A stretch of 64,000 nucleotides of DNA from an uncultured Candidatus Saccharibacteria bacterium (GTDB lineage: Bacteria; Patescibacteriota; Minisyncoccia; Phycocordibacterales; Zambryskibacteraceae). Below, one piece after another: positions 38,533-58,627 of this stretch. The stretch lies in the NCBI GenBank assembly GCA_964516975.1, contig CAZFAS010000001.1, positions 18,823 to 82,822 of the forward strand, read 5' to 3'. The notes below the pieces were generated by a model. It ran no database searches, was not told the DNA's origin, and worked only from the letters and a program-made list of their open reading frames with translations. How positions within the stretch are numbered: position 1 is the stretch's first letter; the number at the start of each line of letters is the position of its first letter. The position numbers and the translations under genes were made by a program.

Positions 38533-38540
38533 ATAAAACA

Positions 38541-38566: not shown

Positions 38567-38791
38567 AATGTCCATTTGAATCCGTTTACCATCATTACAA
38601 CGAAAAAGCTTTGGGTTATCACCGCCACATTGATTCAAAACTTGACGGACAAAATGTAGTGCTTTTGCATCAGGTTCATTTTGCTCTTCAGCAGTAATTG
38701 AAATTTGAACAGTTTGCAGATCCTCGCTACCGTCGGACTTTTTTATGTCACGGTAAAAGATATACGCAATTCTGTTTACAGTAGGTGGCAT
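38564..38791 (-). CDS. hypothetical 75-aa protein
   Basis: ORF only. It is convergent with the upstream genes and divergent from the giant gene. Confidence 0.3.
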   Translation of the reverse strand: MPPTVNRIAYIFYRDIKKSDGSEDLQTVQISITAEEQNEPDAKALHFVRQVLNQCGGDNPKLFRCNDGKRIQMDI

Positions 38792-39384
38792 AAAGGCCTC
38801 ATGATTTAGTTAAGAACTCACTGCAAAGAATATATCATCACGAGAATTTATGTCCAATTTTAAATTTCTAAATATATAAGTGTTGATAACTTTTTTCATA
38901 AAAATTTTAGAACTGTGTCAAAAAAAATTGAAGAGTGTAAAAGTGAAAAAACTTTTTTCTTTGAGTTGTAAAAATAGGGTATATATTTACTAAGAAATTC
39001 TTAAATATAAATAAATTCGGTTCTTAATCCGAGATGAGTGAGCGCACTTTGAGTTTCACAAATAAATATAAATTCACTACCATAAGTCACATGCAGTTAT
39101 CGCTAAATAGTAAGGTTTATAAATGTTTATATATGTTATTTTTAGTAATTCTCGATTAAACTTTTGTGAAACAAGCTATATAAAATGCATTTGATTATAT
39201 TTCGAGAAATAATTCTTAGATAATACAGTGAATTTTCCATTATGAATTATTTGCCTTTGAAAGTATTTTGTATTGTATTTTTTTGAAACAGAAATACCAC
39301 AAATTATTTTCTATAAAATTTAAAAAATTGATTCAAAATATGCTTACAAATCTGACCAAATTTAATTTACCCTCAGAGTGAATA

Positions 39385-42300
39385 TTGATACCATTTGTGT
39401 GTATGTTTTTTCGATTTTTACCAAGGCAAATTTTAAAAATATCTTCAGTATATTTTACTGTTGTTCTTGTACTTATTTTTGCAATTGCTCCACGCATAAT
39501 TTTTGCTGACGAAGCAAGTAATGTTGATGCCATTGTGACAACCGAAGTGAGTAGTGTGGTTACTTCGACCGTTCCTGAACAGCAAGGCGCGCAACAGGAG
39601 AACTCTATTGTAGATCCAGTTGTTAGTACATCAGTACCAGAGGTTGTTGGCAATGATTCAGCTACCACGTCAAATGTCGAATCAAGTTATGAGGCTGGAG
39701 ATGTTATAGCAACTTCCACATCGGAAATAGCTGTTTCAACAACAACGGATTCAACATTGCCAAATAATGTGGTGATTGATGAATCGGGATCGTCGACTCC
39801 TTCTTTCGCTGCTACTTCTACTCCGAACTCTAGTGATTCTTCTTTTGTACCGAGTCTAGATGCTGTAAGTGGCGCTTCTAGTAGTAGTGTGCCAACATCA
39901 ACGGTTCCAAGTATTGTCGAGCAAGACACACAGACAGGAAAGACTTTGACGATCTCAGCAACCCCCGAGCAAGAGCTTATTACTCCTATGGTTAATATTC
40001 CCGTAAAAACGGAGATACCAGAGATCTTTAAAATTGGTCAGGAAAACCAAATACAAGTGAAGTGGCAGAACAACGGAAATCAGGAAATGCAGTTTACTGC
40101 TCTTGATGAAGACGGAAATGGATACATTGATCATATTGAGTGGATCGTACCTCATTTATCTACGCAGACGTTTTCTATTATTTACATTTCGCATGCGCTC
40201 CAGCTTGATCCAAACAAGAATGTCATTGCTGATATTTATGACCAAGTAAAGGATAAAGATGGTACCTATGCTTATCTATCTGATAGTCAATTCGTTCGTG
40301 CGACATTTGAACATATTTTGGATAATACGAAAGATATAACATTGTATGCTAAGCCACATAATGAAGGATCATCAGTAAAGATTGAAGTATATACTTTGAA
40401 TGGTGATTTAGTTGCTGTATTCGATGCAATAGACCATGAAGGTAAGTATCGAGTATTGCTTACTAACTTGTCTACATCTACTGACACTTTTGATTTGAAA
40501 ATAATAGGCGATGTTGATATTGATCAAATTATTGATCCGGCACCAGCAACAGCTTATTGGGTTGGCGGAACGGGTAATTGGTCAGATGCTGCAAATCACT
40601 GGGCATCTTCATCTGGCGGAGCTCCTGGCGCCGGTAACGCTCCTGATGCTACGAGTAATGTAGTTTTCGATGCTTCATCAGGAGGAGCTGCGACAGTTGT
40701 CACCATTGATTCAAGCGCTACTGTTGGTTCAATGACAATTAGTGCATATACAGGCACCATTATTCAAAATGCAAATCTCACGATAACAAATTCTGGCGGT
40801 CAATCTGGAAATTATGTACAAAATTCCGCAGTTACATTTACTGCAACAAATCCTGGAACAAATACACTTACTGTCACGGGAAGTTTTGCAATTAATGCGG
40901 GAACTTTTAGAAGATACACAGGATTAGGAATTAGTTCAGATCCTTTTCTTATTTATGATGTGTATGGTTTGCAAGGAATGAAGACTTCAACTTCAAGTGC
41001 ATACAAATTAAATAATAATATTAATGCTGCTACAACTACTGGGTGGAATTCTGGTGCAGGTTTTGATCCAATCGGAAATGGATTCCCAAATACCTTCGGA
41101 GGAATTTTCGACGGTAATGGTTACACGATTAGTAACTTATTTATTAGTACTACCACATCAAGTTATGTTGGTTTGTTTGGATACATTACAAATGTCGTTA
41201 AGAATGTAAATCTTTCGAATGTTACTATCGCAGCAACAAGTACAAATGGAACAGCAGGATCAACAGGTTCATCAGGTTCTGATGGATCTGCAACATCAGC
41301 TGGAACAGCAGGTGGTGCTGGTACGGCAGGAAGTACTTTATATTTAGGAGGTATTGCTGGTTATAACACTGGAACAATTACAAATGTAAGTGTGACAGGA
41401 AGTATTACCGGTGCAGGTGGTGCTGGTGGAAATGGTGGAAATGGTGGTAATGGAGGAAATATAAATAGCGGATCAAACACTGCCGGGGCTGGAGGAAATG
41501 CGGTAAGTAATGCGGCTGCTACTGGTGGACTCGCATATGTGGGAGGAATTGTCGGGTATTCACAACAAGGAAGTATTACGACTGCCACAAGTTCGGCAAC
41601 TATTTTAGGTACTGGTGGTGCTGGCGGATCGAGTGGTAATGCAGGTAACGGTGGAAACGGATCAGTTGGGGGTGTTGGAACAGGTATTGGAGGAGCCGGT
41701 GGTGCTGCGGGAGTTGCGGGTGCAGGAAACATTGCATATGTTGGCGGACTTGTTGGCTGGGTTCAGACTGGGACGATCACTTCATCATTTGCAACTGGAA
41801 ATGTTACAGCAAAGGGAGGTGCGGGAGGTAATGCTGGTACATCGGGAACTGGAGGAAATGCTGGTGTTGGCGCTGGAGGTGCAAATATTGGTGGTATTGG
41901 AGGCGCAGGTGCGGCAGGAGGTGCAGCTGGCGCATCATATGCAGGTGGACTTGTTGGAAACAATTTAGGGACAATTCAAAATGGAAGCTTTGCAACTGGT
42001 AATGTTCAATCGATTGCAGGAACACCAGGTACAGCATCGGCAGGAAGTGCAAGTGGCGCCTCAGCTTCAGGTTCAATAGCAACTGCTGCATCAAGTGCAA
42101 CCGCAACAGGAGGAGCCGGAGGTGCAGGAGCAATAGCATATGCTGGAGGACTTGTTGCTCAAAATGGTACATCTGGAATCATAACCGGTACATCTACCAT
42201 TGTGTATGCAAGTGGAACAGTCACAGCCACTGGATCAGCGGGAAGAAATGGTGCTGCTGGTGGTGCCGGTGGTAGTGCTAGTTTAACTACATCAGGTACT

Positions 42301-45300
42301 GGAGGTGTTGGGGGTGCTGCCGGAAATGGTGGTGCGGGGGGTGCTGTATACGCAGGTGGATTAGTTGGTTTGAATGCGGGGACTGTAATTTCCGCAAGTT
42401 CAAATACTGGGCTCATCACAGTAAATGGCGGTAATGGTGGAATCGGTGGTACAGGTGGTGCAGGAGGAGCGAAGGGTTCAGCTGGTACATCAGGTGCAGG
42501 TGGCGCTTCTGGTACAGGAGGATCTGCAGCTGTTACTTCAACATACGCTGGTGGATTAGTTGGTAGTAACACTGGATTTATACAAACGGCATCTTCGACA
42601 AATGCAGTTAGTGCACAAGCTGGTACTGGCGGTGCCGGGGGAACTGGAGTGGCAGCACAAACAGGACTTGCAGGTCTTGCCGGGGGAACTGGAGGAGCTG
42701 CTGGCATACTATATATAGGAGGTATTGCGGGTAACAGTACCCTTTCAATAGCTGATAGTTATCACACTACTGGTGCTATAAATGGAACTGCGGGAAATGG
42801 AGGTGCAGCAGGAGCAGGTGGTGCCGGTGGTACATGGTCAGGAGGAACTGCTGGTGCTGCAGGAACTGCAATTATCGGAGGTGTTGTATATGCGGGAGGT
42901 ATTGTTGGAAATAATACAGGTACAACAATCATTAATTCGTATTCGACATCTGATGTTACCGGAACATCAGGAACTGGTGGTGCGGGAGCAAACGGTGGTG
43001 ATGGTTATACATTTACAGCAGGTGTGGCTGGAATTGGTGGAAGTGTCGGTTTAACAGGAGGTATTGCTTATGTTGGTGGTGTCGTTGGATATTTGAACAA
43101 TGGTGAAATTACAAATTCATATTCAACTGGGATAATTACAGCAGACGGTGGTAACGGAGGAAATGGTGGTAACGGAGGAAATGGTGGCGCTGGGTCAGCA
43201 GGAACTGGAGGAGCGGGCGGTGCTGGTGCAGCGGGTGGTGCGGGAGGAGCTGCATTCGCTGGTGGAGTTGCAGGAAATATAGTACTTGGTGTTGTTACAA
43301 ATAGTTACAATACTGGAAATGTAATTGCAATTGCAGGAAATGGCGGTAATGCAGGAAATGGCGGTAACGGAGGAAATGGTGGTACAAATTTTGCAGGTGG
43401 AACTGGAACTGTTGCCGGTGCTGGTGGCGCTGGTGCAGTTGCAACAGCAGGAGGTGTTGCTGGACAAAGTGCGGGAGTAATTCAAGCAAATTCGTATTCA
43501 ACAGGAAATGTAACTGCAACTGCAGGTAGTGCACAAGTTGGCGGAACTGGTGGTAACGGAGGTGCGTCAGCTGGAACATTTGTTGGTGCTGGAGCTGTAG
43601 GTGGTGCAGGTGGAGCGGGTGGCGCTGGTGCAATTGCATATGCTGCAGGTATTGTTGGAAACAACACAAACACTATCCAGAATTCTTATGCGGGTGGGAC
43701 AATTTTGGCGACAGCATCAGCGGGTGCAAATGGTGGCGCTGCTGGTCTTGGTGGAAGTAATGCAACAGGAGGTTCATCAAGTACTGGAGCAGCAGGTGCA
43801 AACGGTGGAGCAGGTGGAGCAGGTGCAGTTGCATACGCAGGAGGTATAGCAGGATTAAATACAGCAATAATTACAAATACATATATTGAATCTGGATCAG
43901 CAACTGCCGCTGGAGGTGCAGGTGGTGCTGGTAATACTGGAGGTGCAGGTGGAGTAGCAGGCACAGGTGCATTGGGCGCTACTGGAGGTACAGGTGGAGC
44001 AGGTGGAGCAGGAGCAATCGGTTACGCTGGTGGATTAATTGCATTTAATTCTGCAGGAACAATAAATAACTCTCATGCATTTATACTTGCAAGTTCAACT
44101 TCGGGCTCTTCGGGTAATGGTGGAACTGGTGGTGCTGGTGGTTATGCAAGCACTGGCGGAACAGGTGGTATTGGTGTTGTGGGTGCTGCAAGTTATGCAG
44201 GAGGTGCTGTTGGAATGAATACTGGAATAATAAGCAATGTATATGCAACAGGAAATGTGATTGCACGTGGTGGTGCAGGAAGCTCAAATGGTGGTGGTGG
44301 AAACGGTGGAACAAGTAGTACTTCAGCAGGAGGTGCGGGAGGTGCAGCTGGTGCTGCTACAACGAACCTCGGAGGAGTAGCATACGCTGGTGGACTTGTT
44401 GGTTTTAATTCAACAAACGGAATTATTCAAAGCGCTTCACATGCAAGTGGCAATGCGACTTCAACAGGTGGTGTTGGTGCAAGTGGTTTAACAGGCGGAT
44501 CTGGTGGTACGTCAACAGGTGCATTTACTGGAGGTGTCGGCATTGCTGGAGGTCCAGGACTTTCAGGTGGAGTTGCAGCTTCAGGGGGTTTAGTTGGATT
44601 TAATTCTGGATCTGTCGCTTCAGATTCTTATGCAAGTGGAAGTGTTTATGCAAATGGCGGTGCTGGTGGTAATGGGGGTAATGGAGGTAATGGAGGCGCG
44701 AGTGGAGCAGGTGTTGTTGGAGTTGCAGGAGTTGGTGGTGGAGTGGGACTTGCTGGAGGTGCTGCATACGCAGGAGGAGTGATTGGAAACGATAGTGTAC
44801 TTGGTACAACAATTTCAATTCCGAATACTACTGGAAGTGTGAATTCACTTGGTGGCACTGGTGGCAACGGCGGAAACGGAGGTAATGGAGGTAATGGTGG
44901 AAGTTCAACTGGTGCAATAGGAGGAGCGGGAGGAATAGCAGGTGCAGGAGGAAACGGTGGACTTGCAGCAAGTGGAGGAATCATGGGACTAAATGTTGGA
45001 GTAATCCATGATGTCACGTATACGATTACATCAATTAATGCACTTGGCGGTGTTGCTGGAACGGGTGGTACAGGAGGAAATGCTGGTGCATCAGGAAATG
45101 TTTCTGGTTCAGCGGGAGCAACTGCGGGTGCTGGTGGTGCTGGTGGAATTGGAGGTGCAACATACATTGGCGGACTTGTCGGAGACAACTCTGGTGTAAT
45201 TGTTGATTCAATAGTAATTGGAAGTTTAACTGCAACTGGTAGAAATGGTGGAAATGGTGGCGTGGGAGGTACTGGTGGAGATGGAACGTTAGGTACTGGT

Positions 45301-48300
45301 GGACATGCTGGTGGTGTGGGTGGTGCTGGTGGTAACGGTTCATCTGGTGGAGCTGTGTACATTGGAGGACTTGTTGGACAGGGAAACGGTAATATTCAAA
45401 AGTCGCAAGCAGTTGGTGGAACAATAACAGTAACTTCAGGTGGAAATGGCGGTACTGGTGGTGCGGGTGCTGCAGGAGGTGCAGGAGGTACTGGTAGTGG
45501 AAAAAATGGAGTAGGTGGAGCAGGTGGTACTGGAGGAGTTGTAGGACCTGTATACGCTGGCGGTGCTATAGGATTCAATTCATTAGTATCAGTATTAATT
45601 GATACAGTTTATTCAACGAATAATGTGTCCGTTACTGCAGGTTCAGGAGGAAATGGGGGTGCAGGTGTTGCTGGGGTAAACGGAGCAGCAGGAAGTGCAG
45701 GTGGTGGAGGGGGTGGAGGAGGTGCAGTTGGTGTTGCGGTATATGGTGGAGGACTTGAAGGATATAACTCTGGTGCTGCACAAAATATTTTTAATTCATA
45801 TGCAACTGGCAATGTTACTGTAAATGGTGGCAATGGTGGTACAGGGCAAGTTGGAGGTACAGGAGGTGCAGCAATAAGTGCAGTTGTTGGAGGTGCAGGA
45901 GGTGCAGGTGGAATTGGAGGTGCAGGAGGTTTTGCATATGGTGGTGGACTTGTTGGGTTTACAAATGCATTAGTATCAATCGCATCAACATCTGCAACAG
46001 GTAATGTCACTGTTATTGCAGGTAATGGCGGTAATGCTGGCAATGGCGGAGCAGGTGCACTTGGCGGAGCAGGTCAGGTTGGAGGTGCTGGCGGAGCAGG
46101 AGGTGCTGCTGGACTAGGTGGAGCGTCATACACCGGAGGTTTGGTTGGTCTCGTAACTTCAGGTGACATTGTAAATTCATTTTCAACTGGAATAATTCAA
46201 GGTACATCAGGTAATGGAGGTAACTCTGGCGCAGGAGGTGCTGGAGGTGCGGGAGGTTCAGGAGTGACAGGAACAATTGGTACCGCAGGAACACTTGGAG
46301 CAAATGGAGGTGTAAATTACACAGGAGGTTTAGTTGGTGATAACACCTCATCAATTGTTAGTTCATATCATAGTGGTGGTGCTATCTCTGCTACAAGTGG
46401 TAATGGTGGTAATGGTGGAGCGGGCGGTAATGGTGGAGCATCTGGAAGTATTACGAACGGTACAGCTGTTGCTGGCGGTGCAGGTGCAAACGGTGGAGTT
46501 GGCGGTGCGGTTTCTGTTGGAGGTCTTGTGGGAAGAAATGGAGTAACAGCATTATCTGCAGTTATTACGAGCTCGTATGCGACAACAAATGTTACAGCTC
46601 TTGGTGGTAACGGAGGAAATGGAGGAGTTGGAGGAAATGGAGGTGATGGATCTTCAGGTACAAATCATATTGGTGGAGTTGGCGGTGCGGGAGGAGCAGG
46701 AGGTGCTGCAGCAACTGGTCTTGCAGGATCAGTACAGGCTGGTGGACTTGTTGGTCAAAATATTTTAGGAACAATTACTGGTAGTTATGCTCAGACTGGT
46801 ACAGTAACAGCGACAGGAGGTACTGGCGGTTCAGCTGCACTAGGTGGAACTGGTGGAGTGGGAACAGGTACGGCAGTATATGGTGCTGGTGGAGCAGGTG
46901 CTGCAGGAGGCGCAGGTGGATCTGTATATGCAGGTGGACTTGTTGGTTATACAACTGGTGTTGTTGAGGGCGGATCATATTCTAAAACGACACTTAATCT
47001 ATTTGGTGGATCTGGTGCAAATGGTACAAATGGTATTACTGCAAGTGCAAATACCGGAGCTGCGGGAAGTGTTCCTGGTGGTGGAGGTGCATCTGGAATA
47101 ATTTATGCTGGTGGACTTATTGGATACACAACTTCTGATGTTGTTTCTTCTTATGCAAGCTATGATGCTGGCACGGGAAAAGGCAATATCACAGTAACTG
47201 GAGGAACTCCAGGTAATGGTGGTAATGCAGGAAGTGGTGGATCTGGTCTTGTTGCAGGTGGAGCAGGTGGTGCGGGAGCAGTAGCTACGCTTGGAACAGG
47301 AGGTGCATCATCAGGAGCATTTGTTGGAGGACTTCTTGGATTTAGCTCAGGAGTAATAACATCATCATACGCAGAATCTCTCAGTATTTCTGGAACTGAG
47401 CAGACTGGTGGAACAGGAGGTAATGGGGGAAATGGAGGTGCGGGTGTTGGAGCAAATAACGGAGGTGTTGGTGCAATTGGTGGTGCAGGTGGAGCTGGAG
47501 GTGTGAGAGGTTTCGGTGGACTTGTTGGTGATTACTTACCAACACTTGGTTCAATACAGGGTAATTCATATTCAACTGTAACAATTTCAGTAGTTAGCGG
47601 TAATGGTGGTAATGGAGGTAATGGTGGTAATGGAGGAACATCTGGTGCGAGTCAATCAAGTGGAACTGCTGCTGTTGCGGGTGTTGGTGGTGCAGGTGGA
47701 GCAGGAGCGGCTGCATATGGTGGTGGGCTCGTAGGACGTATCACAGGTACCACACAGGTTATACAAGTTGCAAATTCATACGCAAGTGGAAACGTTTCAG
47801 TTACAAGTGGTAATGGTGGTAATGGTGGTACAGGTGGAAATGGAGGAAATGGATCAACAGGAAGTTCAACTCATGCTGGAGCAGCTGGTGGACTTGGTGG
47901 AGTCGCGGGTGTTGGCGGTGAGGCAGATGCTGGCGGTCTTGTTGGGCTCAGTAACTTAACAACAGGATCCGTAGATTATATTTCTGTATATGCAACGGGT
48001 TATGCAAGTTCAACAGCAGGAAACGGTGGGACACAAGGGACTGGCGGTAATGGTGGTGCATCTGCTAGTGGTGCAGCAGGTGGAGCTGGAGGTGGAGCAG
48101 TGTTAACTCCACCAGCTGGAGGTGCGGCTTATGCAGGAGGGCTTATAGGCATAAATAGAATTACAACAACGCCAGGACAAAGTGACATAATAAATTCATA
48201 TTCAACTGGTTTAGTAAGTGCAAAGGGAGGAGTAGGTTCTATTGGGAATCAAGGAGGTAATGGTGGTACTGGAGGAACAATCGGTGGTGCAGGTGGAGCT

Positions 48301-51300
48301 GGAGGTGCATCAGGAATTGGTGGTGAAGCAGATGCTGGAGGTCTTGTAGGATTATCAAGTGTGACAACTGGTTTTGTGCATTATCAAAATAGCTTTGCAA
48401 CAAATGGTACAGTTACTGCAATTGGTGGAGCATCAGGTGCTGGTGGAAGTGCAGGAAGTTCAACTGCAGGTGGGTCAGGTGCAGGAGGAACAACAGGAGC
48501 ATCTGGTGCAAGTGCGGCTGGAGGTGCGGCATATGCTGGAGGATTAATTGCACAACTGAACGCAACAGCAAGTAATAACCAATTAGTTACAGCAAGTTAT
48601 TCAACTTTATCAGTAAGTGCAACTGGTGGAGCAAGTGGTAATGGTGCAAATGGAGTAATTGGTGGCGCTGGTGGAACAGCATCAATCGGAGGTGTTGGTG
48701 GATCAGGTGGAGTGTCTGGAGCTGGAGGTGCTGCGTATGCAGGAGGGCTTATTGGTACAAACGGAACAGCAGCACTTGCTGGTGGTGGTGTAATTGAAAG
48801 TGGATCCTATGCTACTGGTGATGTTAATTCAATAAGTGGTGTTGTTGGATCTGCGGGTACTGGTGGCGCTGGTGGAGCAAGCAATAGTGGTACTGCAACG
48901 TTAGCGGCTGGTGGAGGAACAGTTGGTACCACTGGTGCTGGAGGTGCAGCATACGCAGGTGGGCTTGTTGGAATTAATGCAGCAACCGGCGTAATTCTTA
49001 ATTCATATGCAGCTGGAAGTGTAACTTCGCTTGCAAGAAATGGTGGTCAGGGTGGTACAGGTGGAAATGGAGGTGATGCATCATTAAGTACAGGTACGGG
49101 AGGACCCGGAACAATTGGAGGTGCTGCTGGTGCAGGTGGCGATAGCTATGCGGGAGGACTTATCGGATATAACGTAAATGCACTTAACACAGTTACAACG
49201 AGTTATTCAACTGGCACAACGATAAGTGGAACAAGTGGAAATGGAGGTCAAGGTGGTACAGGTGGAAATGGAGGAAGTGCAGGTATAGCTGCTGCGGGTG
49301 GAGCTGCTGGTGCAGGTGCAACTGCTGGTGCTGCTGGCACATTATATGTAGGAGGTTTGATTGGAAGAAATGATGGAACCGTACTTCTATATTCATATTC
49401 GACATCAAATGTTGTTGGAGTTGCGGGTACTGGTGGCGCTGGTGGAAACGGAGGTAATGGTGCAAATGGTGCAGTTGGAACATCGGGTAATGGAGGAAAT
49501 GGAGGAGTAGGTGGCTCAGCCACTGCTGGAGGCGCAGGAGGTATCGCTTATATTGGTGGATTTGTTGGAAGAAATGAGACCACAAGAGTAATAAAAGATT
49601 CATACGCTCTTGGAACCGTGACTGCAAGTGGTGGTGCTGGAGGTGCAGGAGGTGTTGGTGGCAATGGTGGCAATGGTGGTAATGGTGCGTCTGCAGGAAC
49701 AGGTGGTACAGGAGGCAATGCAGGCGCAAGTGGTGCAGGGACGGTAGGAGGTGTTAAGTATGGTGGAGGATTTGCAGGTTATAATTTCGGTACAATTTCT
49801 ACTGTTTATTCTGTTGGTACAGTTTCTGTCACAGGATCAAATGGTGGTGCCGCTGGTAATGGTGGTAATGCAGGTAATGGAGGTAATGGAGGTGCAAGTG
49901 GTGCAGGTGGTATAGGTGGAAATCAGGGAGCAACATCAAATGCTGGAAATGGAGGAGTTCTTCATGCTGGAGGTTTGATCGGATATAATTTTACTGCAGG
50001 TGTACTTTCTAATTCATGGACAGCTGGAAGTGTTGTAACTTTTGGAGGTGCGGGTGGTGCAGCAGGTATTCGAGGAACAGCGGGAACTGGTGGAGATGGT
50101 GGAACTCTTGCGGGTGGAGCTGGAGGTGCAAGTGTTGTTGGAAGTGCAGGTGGAGCTGGCGGAGCAAGTATAGCGGGAGGTCTCATTGGTTCAAATATAA
50201 CCACAGGATCATTTAGTAATAGTTATGCATCCACAACTGTGACGATGACTGGTGGAAATGGTGCAGATGGTGGCGTTGGTGGATCTGGTGGTAATGGAGG
50301 AACTGGTGGATCCGGCGGATCTGGAAATGGCGGTGCAGGTCAAGCTGGCTCATTAGGAGGTGCTGGTGGTAATGGTGGCGCAGTAACAGGAGGAGGTTTG
50401 GTTGGTGATAATACAGGTGCAATTACTAACGCGTATGCATTAGGAAATATTATTGCGAGCGCGGGTATTCCTGGTGCTGGTGGAATTGGAGGTGCTGGTG
50501 GTAATGGTGGCGCAGCTGGTGGTGGAAGTGTTGGCTCAAATGGAAGTGGTGCGAATGGTGGAGGAGGTGGAGCGGGTGCAAACGCTTTAGTTGGAGGGTT
50601 GCTTGGTAGCCATGCAACTTCACTTGCATCAAGTACGTATTCTGTTGGCGTACCAACAGCAACAAAGTCATCAGGTGGCGTAGGTGGGGCAGGTGGTGCA
50701 GCAGGAACAGGAGGTTCAGGAGGTAGCGCTGGCTCAACTGGAGCAGCCGGATCTTCAGCAGCACTCCAGTATGCGGGTGGTATTGTCGGCAATCCTGTAA
50801 GTGGAACGTGGGCATCAAGTTATTGGGATGTTACAACTTCAGGAAAAACTGATGGAGCGGGGAATGCAACAACTCCGACAAACACAGTAGGAAAAACTAC
50901 TACGCAGATGAAACAGCAAGCAACATTTGTTGGTTGGGACTTCACCATTTTCCCAGTTTGGGACATTGTGGCGGCATCAACATATCCATACTTTAATTAT
51001 CAAACTTCTCCAGATGCTCCAACAAATGTTACTGCTATTGCTGGAAATGGTCAGGCGACAATCACGTTTACTCCGCCAGCAAATATGGGAGGTGGGCAAA
51101 TACTATCTTATACCGTAACATCTTCTCCTGGTGGATTTACAGCAACTGCAGGGGCTTCACCTATAGTTGTTACTGGTTTAACAAACGGCGTTGTGTACAC
51201 ATTTACTGTTACAGCAACAAATGCAAATGGTACCAGCGTCTCTTCAGCAACTAGTAACGCTGTCACACCAGCAACAGTTCCGGATGCACCAACAATCGGC

Positions 51301-54300
51301 ACTGCAACTGCTGGAAATGGTCAGGCAACAATAACCTTTACTCCGCCTGTTTCAAATGGAGGTTCAACGATTTTGTATTACACAGTTTCGTCTAATACGG
51401 GAGGATTTACAGTATATGCTGGGTCATCACCTGTCGTTGTAACTGGTCTCTCAAATGGCACACCATATACATTTACCGTGACAGCAACAAATGCAGTTGG
51501 GACAAGTTCAGCATCAGCAACTACAAATTCTGTCACACCAGCAACAGTTCCGGATGCACCAACAATTGGCACTGCAACTGCTGGAAATGGTCAGGCAACA
51601 ATCACATTTACTCCACCAGTATCAAACGGAGGAAGTGCTATTACGTATTACACAGTCACATCAAACTCAGGCGGATTCACTGCGTATGGTGGTTCATCAC
51701 CAATTACAATCACAGGTCTCTCAAATGGAACACCATATACATTTACCGTGACAGCAACAAATGCAGTTGGGACAAGTACAGCATCATCTGCAAGTAATTC
51801 AATTACACCTGCCACCGTCCCAGACGCACCAACTTCTGTTACGGCAGTTCGAGGAAATGGTCAGGCAACAATCACATTTACTCCACCAGTATCAAACGGG
51901 GGGAGTGCTATTACGTATTACACTGTGTACTCAAACACGGGTGGATTCACCGCAACTGGTGGAAGTTCGCCAATTACGATTACAGGATTAAATAATGGAA
52001 CGGCATATACATTTACTGTAAAAGCTACAAATGCGATTGGTACAAGTTCTGCTTCTGCAACAAGTAATTCCGTGACTCCGGCAACAGTTCCGGATGCACC
52101 GACAGGTGTAACAGCAGTTCGAGGAAATGGCGAAGCTACGATTTCATTTAGTGCACCTTCATCTGATGGAGGTTCATCAATTATTAGATATACGGTTACT
52201 TCAAGCATTGGTGGGTTAACTGCAACTGGTGCAAGTTCGCCAATTACAATCACAGGTCTTTCTAATGGGACTTCGTATACGTTTACTGTTACTGCCACAA
52301 ATGCGATTGGCACAAGCACAGCATCATCTGCAAGTAATTCGATTTCACCTGCTACTGTTCCAGATGCACCAATTATAGGAACTGCAACTGCAGGAAATGG
52401 CGAAGCTACGGTTACATTTTCGCCACCAGTAAATGATGGATATTCATCAATCCTGTATTACACTGTTTCGTCTAATACTGGTGGATTTACAGTATATGCT
52501 GGGTCATCACCTGTCGTTGTAACTGGTCTCTCAAATGGCACAACATATACATTTACTGTAACTGCCACAAATGCAGTTGGTACAAGTACAGCGTCAAGTC
52601 CGACAAATTCTGTGATGCCAGTTACTGTACCAAGTGCTCCAACATCTGTTAGTGCTACAGCCGGAAATGGTGAAGCTACGATTTCATTCACAGCATCTGC
52701 ATCTGATGGTGGTAGTGCGATAACAACGTATACTGTCACTTCTAATACTGGTGGATTCACTGCAACCGGTGGAAGTTCACCAATTACAGTAACTGGCCTC
52801 TCAAATGGCACAACATATACATTTACCGTGACAGCAAGTAATGCGTACGGAACAAGTTCTGCCTCCGCAACTACAAACTCTGTTACACCTGCCACCGTCC
52901 CAGACGCACCAACTTCTGTTACGGCAGTTCGAGGAAATGGTCAGGCAACAATCACATTTACTCCACCAGTATCAAACGGGGGGAGTGCTATTACGTATTA
53001 CACTGTGTACTCAAACACGGGTGGATTCACCGCAACTGGTGGAAGTTCGCCAATTACGATTACAGGATTAAATAATGGAACGGCATATACATTTACTGTA
53101 AAAGCTACAAATGCGATTGGTACAAGTTCTGCTTCTGCAACAAGTAATTCCGTGACTCCAGCAACAGTTCCAGATGCACCAACAATCGGCACTGCAACTG
53201 CTGGAAATGGTCAGGCGACAATCACATTTACTCCACCATCAAATACTGGAGGCTCGTCTATTTCATACTATACAGTATCGTCTAATGTCGGTAATTTTGT
53301 CGCTTATAGTGCAAGTTCACCAGTAACTATTTCAGGGCTTTCGAATGGCACAACATATACGTTTACTGTAACTGCCACAAATGCAGTTGGGACAAGTACA
53401 GCGTCAAGTCCGACAAATTCTGTAGTGCCTGCTACGGTTCCTGATGCCCCAACTTCTGTTACAGCAGTACGAGGTGATGGTCAGGCAATAATCTCATTTA
53501 CTCCGCCTGTTTCAAACGGAGGTAGTACGATTACAACATATACAGTTGCATCAAATATTGGCGGATTTGTTGCTACGGGTGGAAGTTCTCCAATCATAAT
53601 TACCGGTCTTTCCAATGGGACTTCATACACATTTACTGTTACAGCAAAAAATAGTGTTGGTACAAGTGCGAGTTCAACACCATCAAATTCTATAACACCT
53701 GCTTCTACGCCAGGATCACCGACAGGTGTAACAGCAGTTCGAGGAAATGGTGAAGCTACGATTTCATTTAGTGCACCTTCATCTGATGGAGGTAGTGCTA
53801 TTACATATTACACAGTCACATCAAACACGGGTGGATTCACTGCGTATGGTGGTTCATCACCAATTACAATCACAGGTCTTTCAAATGGAACACCATATAC
53901 GTTTACCGTGACAGCAACAAATGCAGTTGGTACAAGTTCTGCTTCTGCAACAAGTAATTCCGTGACTCCAGCAACAGTTCCGGATGCACCAACTTCTGTT
54001 ACTGCCGTACGTGGTGATGGTGAGGCAACAATCACATTTACTCCATCAGTATCAAACGGAGGGAGTGCTATTACGTATTACACTGTGTACTCAAACACGG
54101 GTGGATTCACCGCAACTGGTGGAAGTTCGCCAATTACGATTACAGGATTAAATAATGGAACGGCATATACATTTACTGTAAAAGCTACAAATGCGATTGG
54201 TACAAGTACTTCATCTGGAACAAGCAATGCTGTAACTCCGGCAGGTGCACCTGGAACACCAACAGGTGTAACTGCCGTACGTGGTGATGGTCAAGCAACA

Positions 54301-55959
54301 ATCTCATTTACTCCGCCTGTTTCAAACGGAGGCAGTGCGATTACTACATATACCGTTACTTCTAATATTGGTGGATTCACAGCAACGGGGGGTTCATCAC
54401 CAATTACAATTACAGGATTAAATAATGGAACAACGTATACATTTACGGTGACTGCAAGTAATGCAGTTGGTACAAGTACTGCATCGAGTGCTTCAAATTC
54501 TGTAACTCCAGCAACAGCACCAGATGCACCCACAAATGTCGCTGCAAGTATCGGAGATACAAGTGCAACAGTGACATGGTCAACACCAGCATTTAATGGA
54601 GGATCTGCAATTACTCTATATACAGTAACTGCAAGTAGTGGGGGCCATACTGCCACGAGCACAGGAAATTCAGCAGTGGTTCTTGGTCTCACGAATGGCT
54701 TTTCGTATACATTTACTGTAACTGCAAGTAATGCAGTTGGAACAAGCACATCATCAGGAACAAGTAATGCTATTACTCCAGCAACTGTACCAGGTGCACC
54801 GACAAATCTTGCAGCTACTGTTCAGGATAGCAGTATTGATTTGTCATGGACCGCACCAGCATCAAATGGCGGTACTCCAATAACCGATTATGTTATCGAA
54901 TACAAACTTTCAAGTGGAGGCACATGGGCAACATTTAGTGATGGTGTAAGTACAAGCCCATTTGTTACAGTCACAAGTCTTTCAAATGATAATTCGTACG
55001 ATTTTAGAGTTGTAGCAAAAAATTTGATTGGACTTGGTGCATCTTCTACTCCAGTAAGCGCAACTCCAGGTGCACCAGCACAGGTTTTGATACAAGGATT
55101 TTCAAATACGACTGTTCCAACAATTGGAACAAATGTTCGAATAACAAATGAAGGTTCAGTTGCGTATGAATATCAATATACGTGGTGCATTACAGATTCA
55201 AGTAGTAATCAATGTGGTGGAGGAGATGATATTTTTAGTTCAACAGCTGCAAAACTAGTTCAACCAGCTGAAAACTTCGATACCACATTAAATTCTACTG
55301 TTCCAACTCCTGGAAATTATTGGTTTCATATAAATGTAAATTTTGGATCAGATTCATCACAGGCTAGTCAATCATTTACAGCTATTCCATCTGGACCTGC
55401 TACAGCTCCTGGCGCACCGACAATTGGAACCGCAACAGCAGGTGATGGTCAAGCAGTTGTAACATTTAGTGCGCCAATAAGTAATGGTGGGTCAGCAATT
55501 ACGTATTACACAGTAACATCAGATATTGGGAATTTTGTAGTATATGGCGCTTCATCTCCAATAACAATTACCGGTCTTTCTAATGGAACAGCGTATACAT
55601 TTACTGTTACCGCTACAAATGCAGTTGGTACAAGTACTGCATCGAGTGTTTCAAACTCTGTAACTCCAGCTGCTGCTTCAAATGGTAATACTGGCGGTGG
55701 TAGTTCAGGTGGTGGTGGAGGGGGAGGGGGCGGAGGTTCATCCACACCAGTGCCAATTTCCAATGTTCCAGGCACCTATAAGCTTTCAGATTTAAATAAT
55801 GATGGAAAAGTAAATTCAGTCGATTTCTCTATTTTACTTGCATTCTGGAAGACAAAAGGTCCATTTAAAAATCCAAAAGTCGATATAAATAAAGATGGAA
55901 AAGTTGACTCTATTGATTTTTCAATCATGTTGTATGATTGGGATAAAAGAAATTTCTAA
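39385..55959 (+). CDS. giant secreted surface protein (5,524 aa): signal/anchor, Ser/Thr-rich linker, ~190-aa beta domain, dozens of GLUG-type Gly-rich repeats, 16 FN3 domains, poly-Gly linker, C-terminal dockerin
   Basis: Uninterrupted 16,575-nt ORF. N-terminus MFFRFLPRQILKISSVYFTVVLVLIFAIAPRIIFA|DEA. Recurrent [AY][AV]GG[LI]VGxNxGxIxNSY[AS]TGxV...GGxGGxGGxGG units (GLUG motif as in IgA-protease-like surface proteins). 16 units of about 90 aa match FN3 (PDAPTxVTAxxGNGQATITFTPPxSNGGSxITxYTV...GLxNGTxYTFTVxATNAxGTS). Tail DLNNDGKVNSVDFSILLAFW...DINKDGKVDSIDFSIMLYDW. The track start is a TTG at 39385; the first ATG is at 39403. Confidence 0.85.
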   Translation: MIPFVCMFFRFLPRQILKISSVYFTVVLVLIFAIAPRIIFADEASNVDAIVTTEVSSVVTSTVPEQQGAQQENSIVDPVVSTSVPEVVGNDSATTSNVESSYEAGDVIATSTSEIAVSTTTDSTLPNNVVIDESGSSTPSFAATSTPNSSDSSFVPSLDAVSGASSSSVPTSTVPSIVEQDTQTGKTLTISATPEQELITPMVNIPVKTEIPEIFKIGQENQIQVKWQNNGNQEMQFTALDEDGNGYIDHIEWIVPHLSTQTFSIIYISHALQLDPNKNVIADIYDQVKDKDGTYAYLSDSQFVRATFEHILDNTKDITLYAKPHNEGSSVKIEVYTLNGDLVAVFDAIDHEGKYRVLLTNLSTSTDTFDLKIIGDVDIDQIIDPAPATAYWVGGTGNWSDAANHWASSSGGAPGAGNAPDATSNVVFDASSGGAATVVTIDSSATVGSMTISAYTGTIIQNANLTITNSGGQSGNYVQNSAVTFTATNPGTNTLTVTGSFAINAGTFRRYTGLGISSDPFLIYDVYGLQGMKTSTSSAYKLNNNINAATTTGWNSGAGFDPIGNGFPNTFGGIFDGNGYTISNLFISTTTSSYVGLFGYITNVVKNVNLSNVTIAATSTNGTAGSTGSSGSDGSATSAGTAGGAGTAGSTLYLGGIAGYNTGTITNVSVTGSITGAGGAGGNGGNGGNGGNINSGSNTAGAGGNAVSNAAATGGLAYVGGIVGYSQQGSITTATSSATILGTGGAGGSSGNAGNGGNGSVGGVGTGIGGAGGAAGVAGAGNIAYVGGLVGWVQTGTITSSFATGNVTAKGGAGGNAGTSGTGGNAGVGAGGANIGGIGGAGAAGGAAGASYAGGLVGNNLGTIQNGSFATGNVQSIAGTPGTASAGSASGASASGSIATAASSATATGGAGGAGAIAYAGGLVAQNGTSGIITGTSTIVYASGTVTATGSAGRNGAAGGAGGSASLTTSGTGGVGGAAGNGGAGGAVYAGGLVGLNAGTVISASSNTGLITVNGGNGGIGGTGGAGGAKGSAGTSGAGGASGTGGSAAVTSTYAGGLVGSNTGFIQTASSTNAVSAQAGTGGAGGTGVAAQTGLAGLAGGTGGAAGILYIGGIAGNSTLSIADSYHTTGAINGTAGNGGAAGAGGAGGTWSGGTAGAAGTAIIGGVVYAGGIVGNNTGTTIINSYSTSDVTGTSGTGGAGANGGDGYTFTAGVAGIGGSVGLTGGIAYVGGVVGYLNNGEITNSYSTGIITADGGNGGNGGNGGNGGAGSAGTGGAGGAGAAGGAGGAAFAGGVAGNIVLGVVTNSYNTGNVIAIAGNGGNAGNGGNGGNGGTNFAGGTGTVAGAGGAGAVATAGGVAGQSAGVIQANSYSTGNVTATAGSAQVGGTGGNGGASAGTFVGAGAVGGAGGAGGAGAIAYAAGIVGNNTNTIQNSYAGGTILATASAGANGGAAGLGGSNATGGSSSTGAAGANGGAGGAGAVAYAGGIAGLNTAIITNTYIESGSATAAGGAGGAGNTGGAGGVAGTGALGATGGTGGAGGAGAIGYAGGLIAFNSAGTINNSHAFILASSTSGSSGNGGTGGAGGYASTGGTGGIGVVGAASYAGGAVGMNTGIISNVYATGNVIARGGAGSSNGGGGNGGTSSTSAGGAGGAAGAATTNLGGVAYAGGLVGFNSTNGIIQSASHASGNATSTGGVGASGLTGGSGGTSTGAFTGGVGIAGGPGLSGGVAASGGLVGFNSGSVASDSYASGSVYANGGAGGNGGNGGNGGASGAGVVGVAGVGGGVGLAGGAAYAGGVIGNDSVLGTTISIPNTTGSVNSLGGTGGNGGNGGNGGNGGSSTGAIGGAGGIAGAGGNGGLAASGGIMGLNVGVIHDVTYTITSINALGGVAGTGGTGGNAGASGNVSGSAGATAGAGGAGGIGGATYIGGLVGDNSGVIVDSIVIGSLTATGRNGGNGGVGGTGGDGTLGTGGHAGGVGGAGGNGSSGGAVYIGGLVGQGNGNIQKSQAVGGTITVTSGGNGGTGGAGAAGGAGGTGSGKNGVGGAGGTGGVVGPVYAGGAIGFNSLVSVLIDTVYSTNNVSVTAGSGGNGGAGVAGVNGAAGSAGGGGGGGGAVGVAVYGGGLEGYNSGAAQNIFNSYATGNVTVNGGNGGTGQVGGTGGAAISAVVGGAGGAGGIGGAGGFAYGGGLVGFTNALVSIASTSATGNVTVIAGNGGNAGNGGAGALGGAGQVGGAGGAGGAAGLGGASYTGGLVGLVTSGDIVNSFSTGIIQGTSGNGGNSGAGGAGGAGGSGVTGTIGTAGTLGANGGVNYTGGLVGDNTSSIVSSYHSGGAISATSGNGGNGGAGGNGGASGSITNGTAVAGGAGANGGVGGAVSVGGLVGRNGVTALSAVITSSYATTNVTALGGNGGNGGVGGNGGDGSSGTNHIGGVGGAGGAGGAAATGLAGSVQAGGLVGQNILGTITGSYAQTGTVTATGGTGGSAALGGTGGVGTGTAVYGAGGAGAAGGAGGSVYAGGLVGYTTGVVEGGSYSKTTLNLFGGSGANGTNGITASANTGAAGSVPGGGGASGIIYAGGLIGYTTSDVVSSYASYDAGTGKGNITVTGGTPGNGGNAGSGGSGLVAGGAGGAGAVATLGTGGASSGAFVGGLLGFSSGVITSSYAESLSISGTEQTGGTGGNGGNGGAGVGANNGGVGAIGGAGGAGGVRGFGGLVGDYLPTLGSIQGNSYSTVTISVVSGNGGNGGNGGNGGTSGASQSSGTAAVAGVGGAGGAGAAAYGGGLVGRITGTTQVIQVANSYASGNVSVTSGNGGNGGTGGNGGNGSTGSSTHAGAAGGLGGVAGVGGEADAGGLVGLSNLTTGSVDYISVYATGYASSTAGNGGTQGTGGNGGASASGAAGGAGGGAVLTPPAGGAAYAGGLIGINRITTTPGQSDIINSYSTGLVSAKGGVGSIGNQGGNGGTGGTIGGAGGAGGASGIGGEADAGGLVGLSSVTTGFVHYQNSFATNGTVTAIGGASGAGGSAGSSTAGGSGAGGTTGASGASAAGGAAYAGGLIAQLNATASNNQLVTASYSTLSVSATGGASGNGANGVIGGAGGTASIGGVGGSGGVSGAGGAAYAGGLIGTNGTAALAGGGVIESGSYATGDVNSISGVVGSAGTGGAGGASNSGTATLAAGGGTVGTTGAGGAAYAGGLVGINAATGVILNSYAAGSVTSLARNGGQGGTGGNGGDASLSTGTGGPGTIGGAAGAGGDSYAGGLIGYNVNALNTVTTSYSTGTTISGTSGNGGQGGTGGNGGSAGIAAAGGAAGAGATAGAAGTLYVGGLIGRNDGTVLLYSYSTSNVVGVAGTGGAGGNGGNGANGAVGTSGNGGNGGVGGSATAGGAGGIAYIGGFVGRNETTRVIKDSYALGTVTASGGAGGAGGVGGNGGNGGNGASAGTGGTGGNAGASGAGTVGGVKYGGGFAGYNFGTISTVYSVGTVSVTGSNGGAAGNGGNAGNGGNGGASGAGGIGGNQGATSNAGNGGVLHAGGLIGYNFTAGVLSNSWTAGSVVTFGGAGGAAGIRGTAGTGGDGGTLAGGAGGASVVGSAGGAGGASIAGGLIGSNITTGSFSNSYASTTVTMTGGNGADGGVGGSGGNGGTGGSGGSGNGGAGQAGSLGGAGGNGGAVTGGGLVGDNTGAITNAYALGNIIASAGIPGAGGIGGAGGNGGAAGGGSVGSNGSGANGGGGGAGANALVGGLLGSHATSLASSTYSVGVPTATKSSGGVGGAGGAAGTGGSGGSAGSTGAAGSSAALQYAGGIVGNPVSGTWASSYWDVTTSGKTDGAGNATTPTNTVGKTTTQMKQQATFVGWDFTIFPVWDIVAASTYPYFNYQTSPDAPTNVTAIAGNGQATITFTPPANMGGGQILSYTVTSSPGGFTATAGASPIVVTGLTNGVVYTFTVTATNANGTSVSSATSNAVTPATVPDAPTIGTATAGNGQATITFTPPVSNGGSTILYYTVSSNTGGFTVYAGSSPVVVTGLSNGTPYTFTVTATNAVGTSSASATTNSVTPATVPDAPTIGTATAGNGQATITFTPPVSNGGSAITYYTVTSNSGGFTAYGGSSPITITGLSNGTPYTFTVTATNAVGTSTASSASNSITPATVPDAPTSVTAVRGNGQATITFTPPVSNGGSAITYYTVYSNTGGFTATGGSSPITITGLNNGTAYTFTVKATNAIGTSSASATSNSVTPATVPDAPTGVTAVRGNGEATISFSAPSSDGGSSIIRYTVTSSIGGLTATGASSPITITGLSNGTSYTFTVTATNAIGTSTASSASNSISPATVPDAPIIGTATAGNGEATVTFSPPVNDGYSSILYYTVSSNTGGFTVYAGSSPVVVTGLSNGTTYTFTVTATNAVGTSTASSPTNSVMPVTVPSAPTSVSATAGNGEATISFTASASDGGSAITTYTVTSNTGGFTATGGSSPITVTGLSNGTTYTFTVTASNAYGTSSASATTNSVTPATVPDAPTSVTAVRGNGQATITFTPPVSNGGSAITYYTVYSNTGGFTATGGSSPITITGLNNGTAYTFTVKATNAIGTSSASATSNSVTPATVPDAPTIGTATAGNGQATITFTPPSNTGGSSISYYTVSSNVGNFVAYSASSPVTISGLSNGTTYTFTVTATNAVGTSTASSPTNSVVPATVPDAPTSVTAVRGDGQAIISFTPPVSNGGSTITTYTVASNIGGFVATGGSSPIIITGLSNGTSYTFTVTAKNSVGTSASSTPSNSITPASTPGSPTGVTAVRGNGEATISFSAPSSDGGSAITYYTVTSNTGGFTAYGGSSPITITGLSNGTPYTFTVTATNAVGTSSASATSNSVTPATVPDAPTSVTAVRGDGEATITFTPSVSNGGSAITYYTVYSNTGGFTATGGSSPITITGLNNGTAYTFTVKATNAIGTSTSSGTSNAVTPAGAPGTPTGVTAVRGDGQATISFTPPVSNGGSAITTYTVTSNIGGFTATGGSSPITITGLNNGTTYTFTVTASNAVGTSTASSASNSVTPATAPDAPTNVAASIGDTSATVTWSTPAFNGGSAITLYTVTASSGGHTATSTGNSAVVLGLTNGFSYTFTVTASNAVGTSTSSGTSNAITPATVPGAPTNLAATVQDSSIDLSWTAPASNGGTPITDYVIEYKLSSGGTWATFSDGVSTSPFVTVTSLSNDNSYDFRVVAKNLIGLGASSTPVSATPGAPAQVLIQGFSNTTVPTIGTNVRITNEGSVAYEYQYTWCITDSSSNQCGGGDDIFSSTAAKLVQPAENFDTTLNSTVPTPGNYWFHINVNFGSDSSQASQSFTAIPSGPATAPGAPTIGTATAGDGQAVVTFSAPISNGGSAITYYTVTSDIGNFVVYGASSPITITGLSNGTAYTFTVTATNAVGTSTASSVSNSVTPAAASNGNTGGGSSGGGGGGGGGGSSTPVPISNVPGTYKLSDLNNDGKVNSVDFSILLAFWKTKGPFKNPKVDINKDGKVDSIDFSIMLYDWDKRNF
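40540..50800 (+). repeat. GLUG-motif / glycine-rich repeat region of the giant protein (roughly 50 degenerate units of about 60-70 aa)
   Basis: Periodic YAGGLVG...NSYSTGNV...GGNGGNGGNGG pattern at the protein level. The DNA is dominated by GGT/GGA/GCA/GCT codons. Confidence 0.7.
51804..52079 (+). repeat. 276-bp segment identical to 52884-53159 (copy 1)
   Basis: Base-for-base identity by inspection of the sequence lines. The offset is exactly 1,080 bp, which equals four FN3 units. Confidence 0.85.
52884..53159 (+). repeat. 276-bp segment identical to 51804-52079 (copy 2); a third, ~190-bp identical copy lies at about 54025-54213
   Basis: Same as above. The ORF track also shows duplicated antisense ORFs with identical translations at 51918-52319 and 52998-53192. 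Confidence 0.85.
55746..55956 (+). other. dockerin module (two Ca-binding loop-helix segments) at the C-terminus of the giant protein
   Basis: DLNNDGKVNSVDFSILLAFW and DINKDGKVDSIDFSIMLYDW match the DxNxDGxVNxxD-F/helix dockerin repeat. A GGGSSGGGGGGGGGGSS linker precedes it. Confidence 0.75.
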
Positions 55960-58599: not shown

Positions 58600-58627
58600 A
58601 GCCACCTCTATGAGGTGGCTTGTTTTC
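58600..58627 (+). terminator. rho-independent terminator (agccacctc tatg aggtggct)
   Basis: 9-bp stem followed by tgttttc. Confidence 0.6.

Follow-up and report, generated by a model that had tools for sequence, protein, structure and literature searches.

The window analyzed here, a stretch of 64,000 nucleotides (nt) on contig CAZFAS010000001.1 of an uncultured Candidatus Saccharibacteria bacterium, contains a giant gene whose product is probably a surface fibre, the cargo of a cohesin-dockerin display cassette found across Patescibacteria. The cassette consists of three adjacent genes, which encode a secreted protein ending in a dockerin and two membrane proteins with cohesin-like N-domains. 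On the basis of sequence comparisons, this three-gene arrangement appears to be conserved across Patescibacteria, and the two membrane proteins would most likely hold the fibre on the cell. A considerable part of all bacterial diversity belongs to the Patescibacteria, most of which spend their lives fixed to other cells; to our knowledge, their contact molecules are poorly known apart from type IV pili.

The giant gene and its proposed anchoring cassette

The giant gene was recognized from the listing of open reading frames (ORFs) as a frame at 39385-55959 of the forward (+) strand, on which all other features of the gene and its cassette lie as well. The frame comprises 5,524 codons from a TTG and is uninterrupted over the whole 16.6 kb, with zero internal stops, exactly as a previous sequence-only reading had proposed. 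The true start is likely the ATG at 39403, six codons past the listed TTG; the product then has 5,518 amino acids (aa) and begins MFFRFLPRQ... / MFFRFLPRQILK... from this ATG. A signal peptide or signal anchor (39403..39507, aa 7-41, ...APRIIFA|DEAS) represents the only hydrophobic segment of the protein and is presumably cleaved. It is followed by a low-complexity stretch rich in Ser, Thr, Val and Glu, which was delimited by composition (39508..39969, aa 42-195). After removal of the signal peptide, the computed mass of the mature protein is ~498 kDa and its pI 4.3.

At its opposite end, the protein terminates in a type-I dockerin with two Ca-loop/helix repeats (55786..55956), which belongs to the Pfam family Dockerin_1 (PF00404; 37.0 bits at aa 5468-5515, cut-off 22.9). 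The window contains no dockerin loops other than its two, DLNNDGKVNSVD and DINKDGKVDSID, which have the form DxNxDGKVxxxD and lie at nt 55789 and nt 55882. Upstream of the dockerin lie a poly-Gly/Ser linker (55675..55785, GGGSSGGGGGGGGGGSS...), an FN3 domain, which is the 16th of the protein (55405..55674, from Pfam and register), and a 115-aa module with two cysteines (55060..55404, ..TNEGSVAYEYQYTWC......C..). This two-Cys module matches no Pfam family, and it is an uncommon one: a collection of 1.84 billion proteins yielded 284 cluster representatives.

The gene for a 294-aa membrane protein (55961..56845) begins 2 nt past the stop of the giant gene and is followed, after a further 5 nt, by the gene for a 578-aa membrane protein (56851..58587). 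The shorter protein is composed of a signal peptide, a cohesin-like N-domain, an Ig-like domain and a C-terminal transmembrane helix (aa 268-290). The longer one has a signal peptide, a cohesin-like N-domain at ~aa 33-166, Big_13-like Ig domains and a transmembrane helix (aa 473-505), and ends in a predicted charged cytoplasmic tail of ~75 aa. Both proteins are paralogous, their N-domains being 28% identical (E 4e-14), and the 294-aa protein matches no Pfam family. No terminator-like site was seen between the three genes, and a terminator-like hairpin at 58600..58620 closes the unit. The sequence-only reading had overlooked the two membrane proteins, which give the dockerin a candidate partner and define the cassette.

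The cohesin-like character of the N-domains is suggested by the family of the 578-aa protein, a length-conserved family of Patescibacteria with at least 362 matches. Pfam Cohesin (PF00963) was found in 12 of 35 full-length homologues, with 25-31 bits against a cut-off of 24.1. The scanned homologues align to the window protein at E about 1e-100, and the Cohesin match (residues ~30-145) falls in the equivalent N-domain. Some family members have been named 'cohesin domain-containing protein' by NCBI. Searches of PDB sequences with the 294-aa protein, the 578-aa protein and the family profile returned nothing useful.

Seven members of the 578-aa family were then looked up on their contigs. All seven contexts displayed the same gene order, namely a secreted cargo, a paralogue of ~270-330 aa and a protein of ~575-640 aa, one of them (L057) being cut by the contig end within the cargo, with both anchor genes retained. 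The complete cargos of the six other contexts vary widely in size (458, 503, 537, 1,408, 1,923 and 5,497 aa, next to 5,518 aa in the window), and like the window protein they all close with the two-Cys module, followed by poly-Gly and the dockerin. In L058-L062, the N-terminal parts of the cargos are unrelated to the window protein. These cargos share an N-terminal domain of their own (YQKIAPGDTVTLGEFVFDD...GWHYY...CG..GDLV), some with long 'VNGHTDSATGGIAS'-type repeats, and form another family of passengers, unrelated to the giant protein, on this anchoring module. The upstream synteny of the giant gene (PGI, ROK) is common to the closest species alone and is not part of the system.

A conserved C-terminus combined with differing N-termini is the pattern to be anticipated of a cargo that is attached through its C-terminus. 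It speaks against the reverse orientation, in which an uncleaved N-terminal segment would serve as the anchor, the Ser/Thr-rich stretch would cross the wall and the distal dockerin would engage cohesins of other proteins or of sister cells as a cell-cell linker. The length of the hydrophobic segment (about 30 aa) would suit such an arrangement, and Ser/Thr-rich segments often serve as wall spacers. However, the genes of the cohesin-like partners belong to what seems to be one operon with the giant gene, both partners have a membrane anchor of their own, and the hydrophobic core is followed by an A-x-A-like site (IFA|DE). Together with the C-terminal conservation in the seven cassettes, this makes the reverse orientation improbable and leaves attachment through the dockerin as the preferred reading.

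Conservation of the giant gene across species

The sequence-only reading had itself raised the doubt that repeats might be collapsed or expanded, or that polishing might have hidden frameshifts. Two observations are in line with such an artefact. The short-read assemblies of the same organism (L005, L051-L056) all end within the 3' part of the giant gene, which made the doubt a reasonable one, and a 277-bp exact repeat connects FN3 unit 4 (51803..52079) with FN3 unit 8 (52883-53159). The comparison with other species nevertheless renders an artefact extremely unlikely.

A search with the first 470 aa of the protein detected orthologues in ~28 species-level genomes of Patescibacteria. Wherever the contig was long enough, the orthologous ORF runs without a stop over more than 3,900 aa, as far as the 10-kb flank reaches; on a complete chromosome of 977 kb (CP066698.1), it is open over more than 3,960 aa. 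From a second, independently assembled species, the orthologue on CAZYGU010000002.1 could be rebuilt whole from two overlapping loci. It counts 5,497 aa, can be aligned to the window protein by BLASTP as one segment (5,521 columns, 83% identity), and contains the same 49 GLUG units and 16 FN3 domains in collinear order. Thirteen orthologues with 61-85% identity are collinear over ~3,580 aa with 0.6% gap cells. All 49 GLUG units are present in 13 of 13, and the array length varies between 3,158 and 3,183 aa. Within the linkers that separate the GLUG cores, Gly positions are conserved to 93.6% and non-Gly positions to 57.7%.

The substitution pattern points in the same direction. Relative to the 83% orthologue, the ratio of nonsynonymous to synonymous substitution rates (dN/dS) was 0.098 for the GLUG array, 0.073 for the FN3 stalk, 0.075 for the N-terminal domains and 0.126 for the C-terminus, with dS at about 1 throughout the gene, so that purifying selection acts on all of its 16.6 kb. 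The Ser/Thr-rich stretch, whose length differs among orthologues, is the fastest-evolving part (dN/dS 0.29). Orthologous pairs of FN3 units are 81-96% identical and paralogous ones mostly 55-84%. As a repeat thus resembles its orthologue more than its paralogues, the repeat units are not being homogenised. The 277-bp exact repeat is the weak spot of the assembly. It is missing in the orthologue, where FN3 units 4 and 8 are just 74% identical at the protein level, and it reflects either gene conversion of recent date or an effect of assembly or polishing at this place. Any uncertainty would at most concern how many copies lie between the two repeats (four FN3 units), and that in this single assembly. 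As judged from these comparisons, which answer the doubt about contiguity with the same 49 and 16 units in a second species, the full set of GLUG units in thirteen species and a dN/dS of about 0.1, the giant gene is real and not an assembly artefact. The repeats, which recur at matching positions in other species, go far beyond what chance would produce.

Low-complexity repeats normally gain and lose units, and a constant repeat count across species is unusual for them. The near-invariant number and length of the units suggests that the fibre is a rigid spacer of defined length rather than a tether of slippery, low-complexity sequence. The gene amounts to about 1.7% of a ~1-Mb genome, if the 977-kb chromosome that bears the orthologue is taken as a guide. 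A key ecological role, which had been proposed for a protein of such cost, fits the dN/dS values of 0.07-0.13 and the near-invariant length in 13 species. Database entries for the giant protein of this organism are fragments of ~110-550 aa, and family surveys that start from called proteins will miss or miscount such giant genes.

A shaft of GLUG and FN3 repeats

The central part of the protein is a tandem array of 49 GLUG units (41332..50874, aa 650-3830). A profile built from the protein's own motifs gave a median unit spacing of 65 aa (range 57-75). One unit consists of a GLUG core of ~30 aa, xxYAGGLVGxNxGxIxNSYxTGxV, and a linker of ~35 aa, whose consensus comprises two runs of GGX triplets, each of ~12 aa, with ~5 variable residues between them. 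The linkers contain 47.5% Gly with a strong period of 3: the probability of finding a Gly, given a Gly, is 0.70 at +3, 0.63 at +6 and 0.60 at +9, compared to 0.37-0.39 at +1, +2 and +4 and to 0.37-0.41 over all other offsets.

The array belongs to the GLUG family, as HMMER searches with the 28-position Pfam model (Glug, PF07581; cut-off 20.5 bits) could confirm. Pieces of 500 aa gave 35.9 and 24.5 bits, unit 1 alone gave 26.1 bits, the best value of a single unit, and 10 of the 49 single units match at E<=1. No match was obtained in pieces of 1,500 aa or more, nor in later 500-aa pieces; the misses in long pieces are most likely due to the handling of compositional bias by HMMER. The remaining units were tied in through internal alignment. 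Further searches with parts of the array were less productive. A homology search with the block aa 3387-3875 was swamped by Gly-rich candidates and gave 3 matches, all on the C-cap and FN3, and a search of PDB sequences with a GLUG piece returned nothing useful.

Both ends of the array are capped. On the N-terminal side, a beta-helix prelude (YWVGGTGNWS...) and an N-cap (FDGNGYTISNL...VGLFG) occupy 40561..41331 (aa 393-649). The Pfam scans gave no match for this stretch in the window protein itself, and homologues of it are annotated with PF05342 (Peptidase_M26_N) and PF07581 in precomputed Pfam annotation. On the C-terminal side, a C-cap (50875..51006, aa 3831-3874, SYWDVTTSG...TTTQMKQQATFVGWDF..VW......YPYF) follows the pattern SYWD...TTTQMK...WDF...W...YPYF, which is conserved in P0121-P0123 and in every long orthologue. 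Three contigs of a viral collection (L063-L065, IMG/VR) match the 'WVGGxGNWS' prelude only (query residues ~192-324), not the tip or the array. A phage origin of the gene was rejected, as these three partial matches, all in the prelude, are the only ones that viral contigs hold.

The C-cap is followed by the FN3 stalk. Pfam fn3 (PF00041) reaches 465.3 bits over 16 stretches, which places these domains in the family; a 90-aa register was confirmed as well. Fifteen domains of 90 aa each, assigned by Pfam and internal comparison, stand in tandem (51007..55059); 14 are similar to each other and the 15th is divergent, followed by the two-Cys module and the 16th domain. The 14th unit is 48-62% identical to other FN3 units and the 15th 16-23%. 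Along the whole shaft, Gly, Ala, Ser, Thr and Asn are abundant and charge is nearly absent. Charged residues (Asp, Glu, Lys, Arg) account for 2.0% of the GLUG array and 3.4% of the FN3 stalk, in contrast to 22% in the tip and 32% in the dockerin.

Several known Gly-rich folds were considered for the array and rejected. A collagen-like helix (PF01391) does not fit, as the GGX pattern is not a Pro-rich G-X-Y pattern; Pro makes up just 0.4-0.5% and the best score was 14.1 bits against a cut-off of 27.2. An RTX beta-roll is contradicted by only 4 GGxGxD motifs in 5,524 aa, a period of 3 rather than 9, 2% charged residues and the lack of a HemolysinCabind match. PE_PGRS (PF21526) was matched by just 2 of 49 units (E 0.046), a PE domain is absent, and the likeness is one of composition and period alone. 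An autotransporter or two-partner secretion reading was rejected as well.

A block of the array (aa 3387-3875) was modelled with AlphaFold2, using an alignment of the protein's own non-overlapping blocks; overlapping blocks fell out of register where segments are identical and were set aside. The model has a mean predicted local distance difference test score (pLDDT) of 61.9 and a predicted template-modelling (TM) score of 0.62, and the GLUG cores are folded as beta-strands with pLDDT 75-86. Precedent for such a fold comes from the IgA1 protease of Streptococcus pneumoniae, to which the unit profile has its best match among PDB sequences, though a marginal one (E 0.05). The match falls within a region described as a beta-helix, in which the GLUG motifs are ~33 aa apart (PMC7695701). 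Since the motifs of the protease have this spacing, the 65-aa unit of the giant protein corresponds to about two coils' worth of chain. Two geometries are conceivable. The linkers are possibly looped out, perhaps as polyglycine-II hairpins, with a rise of ~0.48 nm per unit, or each linker possibly forms a Gly-rich coil of its own, with a rise of ~0.96 nm per unit.

These results modify the picture drawn by the sequence-only reading in several respects. The repeats of ~60-70 aa that it had seen could be confirmed, but they extend over 3,181 aa and not ~3,400 aa. The Gly-rich runs are indeed not collagen; in place of the absent periodicity that had been reported, they display a strong GGX period of 3. 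From the suggestion of a beta-roll or beta-helix-like solenoid, the beta-helix part gains from the strand structure of the cores and the IgA1 protease match, whereas a beta-roll of the RTX type is excluded. The HMMER searches against Pfam GLUG and fn3 that it had recommended both pass, GLUG only in short pieces, and the recommended structure prediction, carried out for one repeat block, was informative for the cores but not for the linkers. The 16 FN3 domains and the dockerin were correctly recognized, but the Cys-containing insert sits between the 15th and the 16th domain rather than behind all of them. Finally, the order of signal or anchor, Ser/Thr stretch and repeats was incomplete, as it had overlooked the tip (aa 196-392), the prelude with the N-cap and the C-cap.

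The relationship to IgA1 proteases raises the question of whether the protein might be an enzyme or toxin that degrades host envelopes, either through a catalytic beta-helix of the pectate-lyase or tailspike depolymerase kind or as a relative of the M26 proteases. Homologues of the N-cap bear Peptidase_M26_N, as mentioned above. A list of weak Foldseek matches to the GLUG-block model, which are hints only, is headed by a springtail polyproline-II antifreeze protein (7JJV) and continues with IgA1 proteases as well as enzymes with a right-handed beta-helix. None of the structural matches has an E value of 1e-3 or below, however, no catalytic domain was found over 5,518 aa, and the 2% of charged residues in the shaft are too few for repeated acid/base active sites. 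An M26 IgA1 protease in particular was dismissed, as Pfam scans detected neither Peptidase_M26_C nor any peptidase family anywhere in the protein. An enzymatic role is thus very unlikely.

The N-terminal tip

Between the Ser/Thr-rich stretch and the prelude lies a folded region of the tip (39970..40560, aa 196-392) with a DxDxNGxID loop. It adopts a beta-sandwich jelly-roll fold of the galactose-binding-like type, as found in family 32 of the carbohydrate-binding modules (CBMs). The sequence identity to the matched CBMs is just 6-19%, and the Pfam scans gave no match to a CBM family in this region.

A lectin-like fold at the free end bears on the question of whether the protein might be a non-adhesive envelope structure, such as a coat, brush, spacer, S-layer-associated canopy, sieve or distance keeper without host recognition. 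The cassette is very widespread and its cargo interchangeable, as for a general envelope component. The nearly uncharged shaft (2.0-3.4% charged residues, rich in Gly, Ala, Ser, Thr and Asn) would be in keeping with this role, and a constant length across species suits a structural spacer. On the other hand, the free end carries the CBM32/lectin-like fold, purifying selection acts on the tip no less strongly than on the shaft (dN/dS 0.075), and a single monomer of ~500 kDa would be a costly coat material. A purely structural role is therefore considered unlikely, and a fibre with a binding tip is preferred.

Proposed mechanism and implications

According to the preferred reading, the ~500-kDa protein would be exported by the Sec pathway via its N-terminal signal peptide. 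The C-terminal dockerin would then engage, in the presence of Ca2+, the cohesin-like N-domains of both membrane proteins encoded downstream; the domain identities and the conserved gene order suggest that the fibre is held by its C-terminus. Outward from the cell, the poly-Gly stretch would act as a hinge, followed by the two-Cys module and the stalk of 16 FN3 domains. With the customary values of ~3.5 nm for the length of an FN3 domain and ~0.48 nm for the rise of a beta-helix coil, the stalk would extend over ~55 nm. The capped and nearly uncharged solenoid of 49 GLUG rungs and GGX linkers would add ~24 nm with the linkers looped out or ~47 nm if each linker forms a coil of its own. At the distal end, the CBM32-like beta-sandwich, situated behind the Ser/Thr-rich tail, would attach to a glycan carried by a host cell or a surface, as its fold suggests. 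The sequence-only reading had called the protein a long extended fibre or adhesin. A very long, extended and secreted repeat protein is well supported by the beta-helix precedent for GLUG, the beta-strand cores of the AlphaFold2 model and the 16 FN3 domains, while the function as an adhesin is what we infer.

Several points weigh against this interpretation. The 294-aa and 578-aa proteins of the window have no Pfam Cohesin match even at E<=10, which makes their assignment a transitive one. The two-Cys module also occurs inside surface proteins with FN3, LamG or PKD domains that carry no recognisable dockerin. An uncleaved signal peptide might make the N-terminus the anchor, and CBM-like folds are known in non-lectin roles as well. 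With respect to the shaft, the Gly-rich linkers were modelled at pLDDT below 50, and a Foldseek search with the GLUG-block model gave no significant neighbour (best E 7.7e-3; query-normalised TM score at most 0.21).

A more far-reaching proposal, which is put forward tentatively and is rather doubtful as a whole, combines two ideas. In the first, the shaft would be a composite solenoid, undescribed so far, in which a GLUG rung alternates with a polyglycine-II-type GGX hairpin or coil, and which, each of its units being conserved individually, would function as a molecular ruler of fixed length. In the second, the three-gene unit would be a general display system of Patescibacteria with single-cohesin anchors. 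If true, this would amount to a 'plug-in' anchoring in monoderms, by which episymbionts present very different host-contact proteins. A conserved cassette with swappable cargo would further offer a guide to proteins displayed on the surface of uncultured Patescibacteria. Attractive objects for study are the dockerin with its two candidate cohesin anchors, the lectin-like tip and the hybrid repeat unit of Gly triplets and beta-helix. A dockerin-domain protein, different from the one described here, is reported to be essential in a cultivated Saccharibacterium, which makes a dockerin-based surface biology in Patescibacteria plausible (PMC10633639). In the literature searched for GLUG, cohesin or dockerin in Patescibacteria, no description of the giant protein or of the cassette was found.

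Other features of the window

The giant gene is preceded by an AT-rich spacer of ~850 nt (38533-39384), which holds no convincing ORF and in which promoter-like sites are not more frequent than in shuffled sequence. A conserved ORF of 75 aa (38305-38532), present in the closest species too, lies directly before this spacer. Inside the giant gene, the minus strand contains ORFs of 150-238 aa (42159-42707, 44646-45362 and 49193-49729). They coincide with a GC skew of 0.35-0.45 that stems from GGN codons and are most simply explained as by-products rather than genes.

Further upstream, an island of high GC content (13157-17952; 0.52-0.55 compared to ~0.38 elsewhere) encodes TerC, a 397-aa protein, TerD, a TelA-like and a vWA-TerF-like protein. 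It is a ter-type stress or tellurite-resistance cluster and was probably acquired horizontally. An ORF at 33485-34486 combines a bacterial PH domain (bPH_2) with Schlafen AlbA_2, a pairing reminiscent of defence-related proteins.

Comparison with known systems

A close parallel to the cassette is the cellulosomal type-I cohesin-dockerin anchoring of Clostridium thermocellum and its relatives. Common to both are a C-terminal dockerin with duplicated Ca-loops, Pfam Cohesin in the family of the proposed partner and the joint encoding of partner and cargo. In contrast to cellulosomes, the cassette contains neither glycoside hydrolases nor a scaffoldin, its cargo is a single fibre and its host is a Patescibacterium with a ~1-Mb genome. 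The anchors of the cassette carry one cohesin-like domain and their own C-terminal transmembrane helix instead of S-layer homology or sortase elements, and the cohesin-like domains of the window stay below Pfam thresholds. Cohesin and dockerin modules are also known outside cellulosomes.

With the giant adhesins SiiE, LapA, MpIBP and Ebh, the protein shares a length of thousands of residues, a stalk of tandem Ig- or FN3-like domains, a distal ligand-binding module and attachment by one end. These adhesins are mostly substrates of type I secretion systems or sortases, with bacterial Ig-like (BIg) repeats or repeats rigidified by Ca. The giant protein differs by its Sec signal, its attachment through a dockerin, the GLUG/GGX solenoid and a repeat number that is fixed across species rather than variable.

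For the shaft, the nearest match by sequence among solved structures is the M26 protease ZmpA/IgA1P of S. pneumoniae (PDB 6XJA/6XJB; PMC7695701). The motif GGLVG...I.NSY..G.V and a beta-helix with a capped end are found in both, and homologues of the N-cap are related to Peptidase_M26_N, the sequence match to the unit profile being marginal, as stated above. The helix of the protease has few rungs at a distance of ~33 aa and is an accessory to the enzyme, whereas the giant protein has 49 rungs at a distance of ~65 aa, GGX linkers and no protease domain. The linkers resemble the GGAGGX repeats of PE_PGRS proteins (PMC9436101, PMC10216338) and the antifreeze proteins of springtails and snow fleas (7JJV, 3BOG), in which GGX runs also show a period of 3 and almost no Pro. 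Unlike PE_PGRS proteins, the giant protein has no PE domain and no significant PGRS match, and its short GGX runs alternate with a beta-helix rung; unlike polyglycine-II arrays, its linkers are without a confident AlphaFold2 structure.

The giant genes of Omnitrophota (bioRxiv 10.1101/2023.11.21.568195) are comparable in that very large, metagenome-derived surface proteins fragment the assemblies and contain dockerin-like elements. They belong to another phylum, consist of other domains and are far larger; their dockerin-like folds are internal repeats, and GLUG is unmentioned in their description. What sets the giant protein and its cassette apart from all these systems is the composite unit of GLUG core and GGX linker, the fixed number of repeats and the putative single-cohesin transmembrane anchors in a monoderm with a minimal genome.

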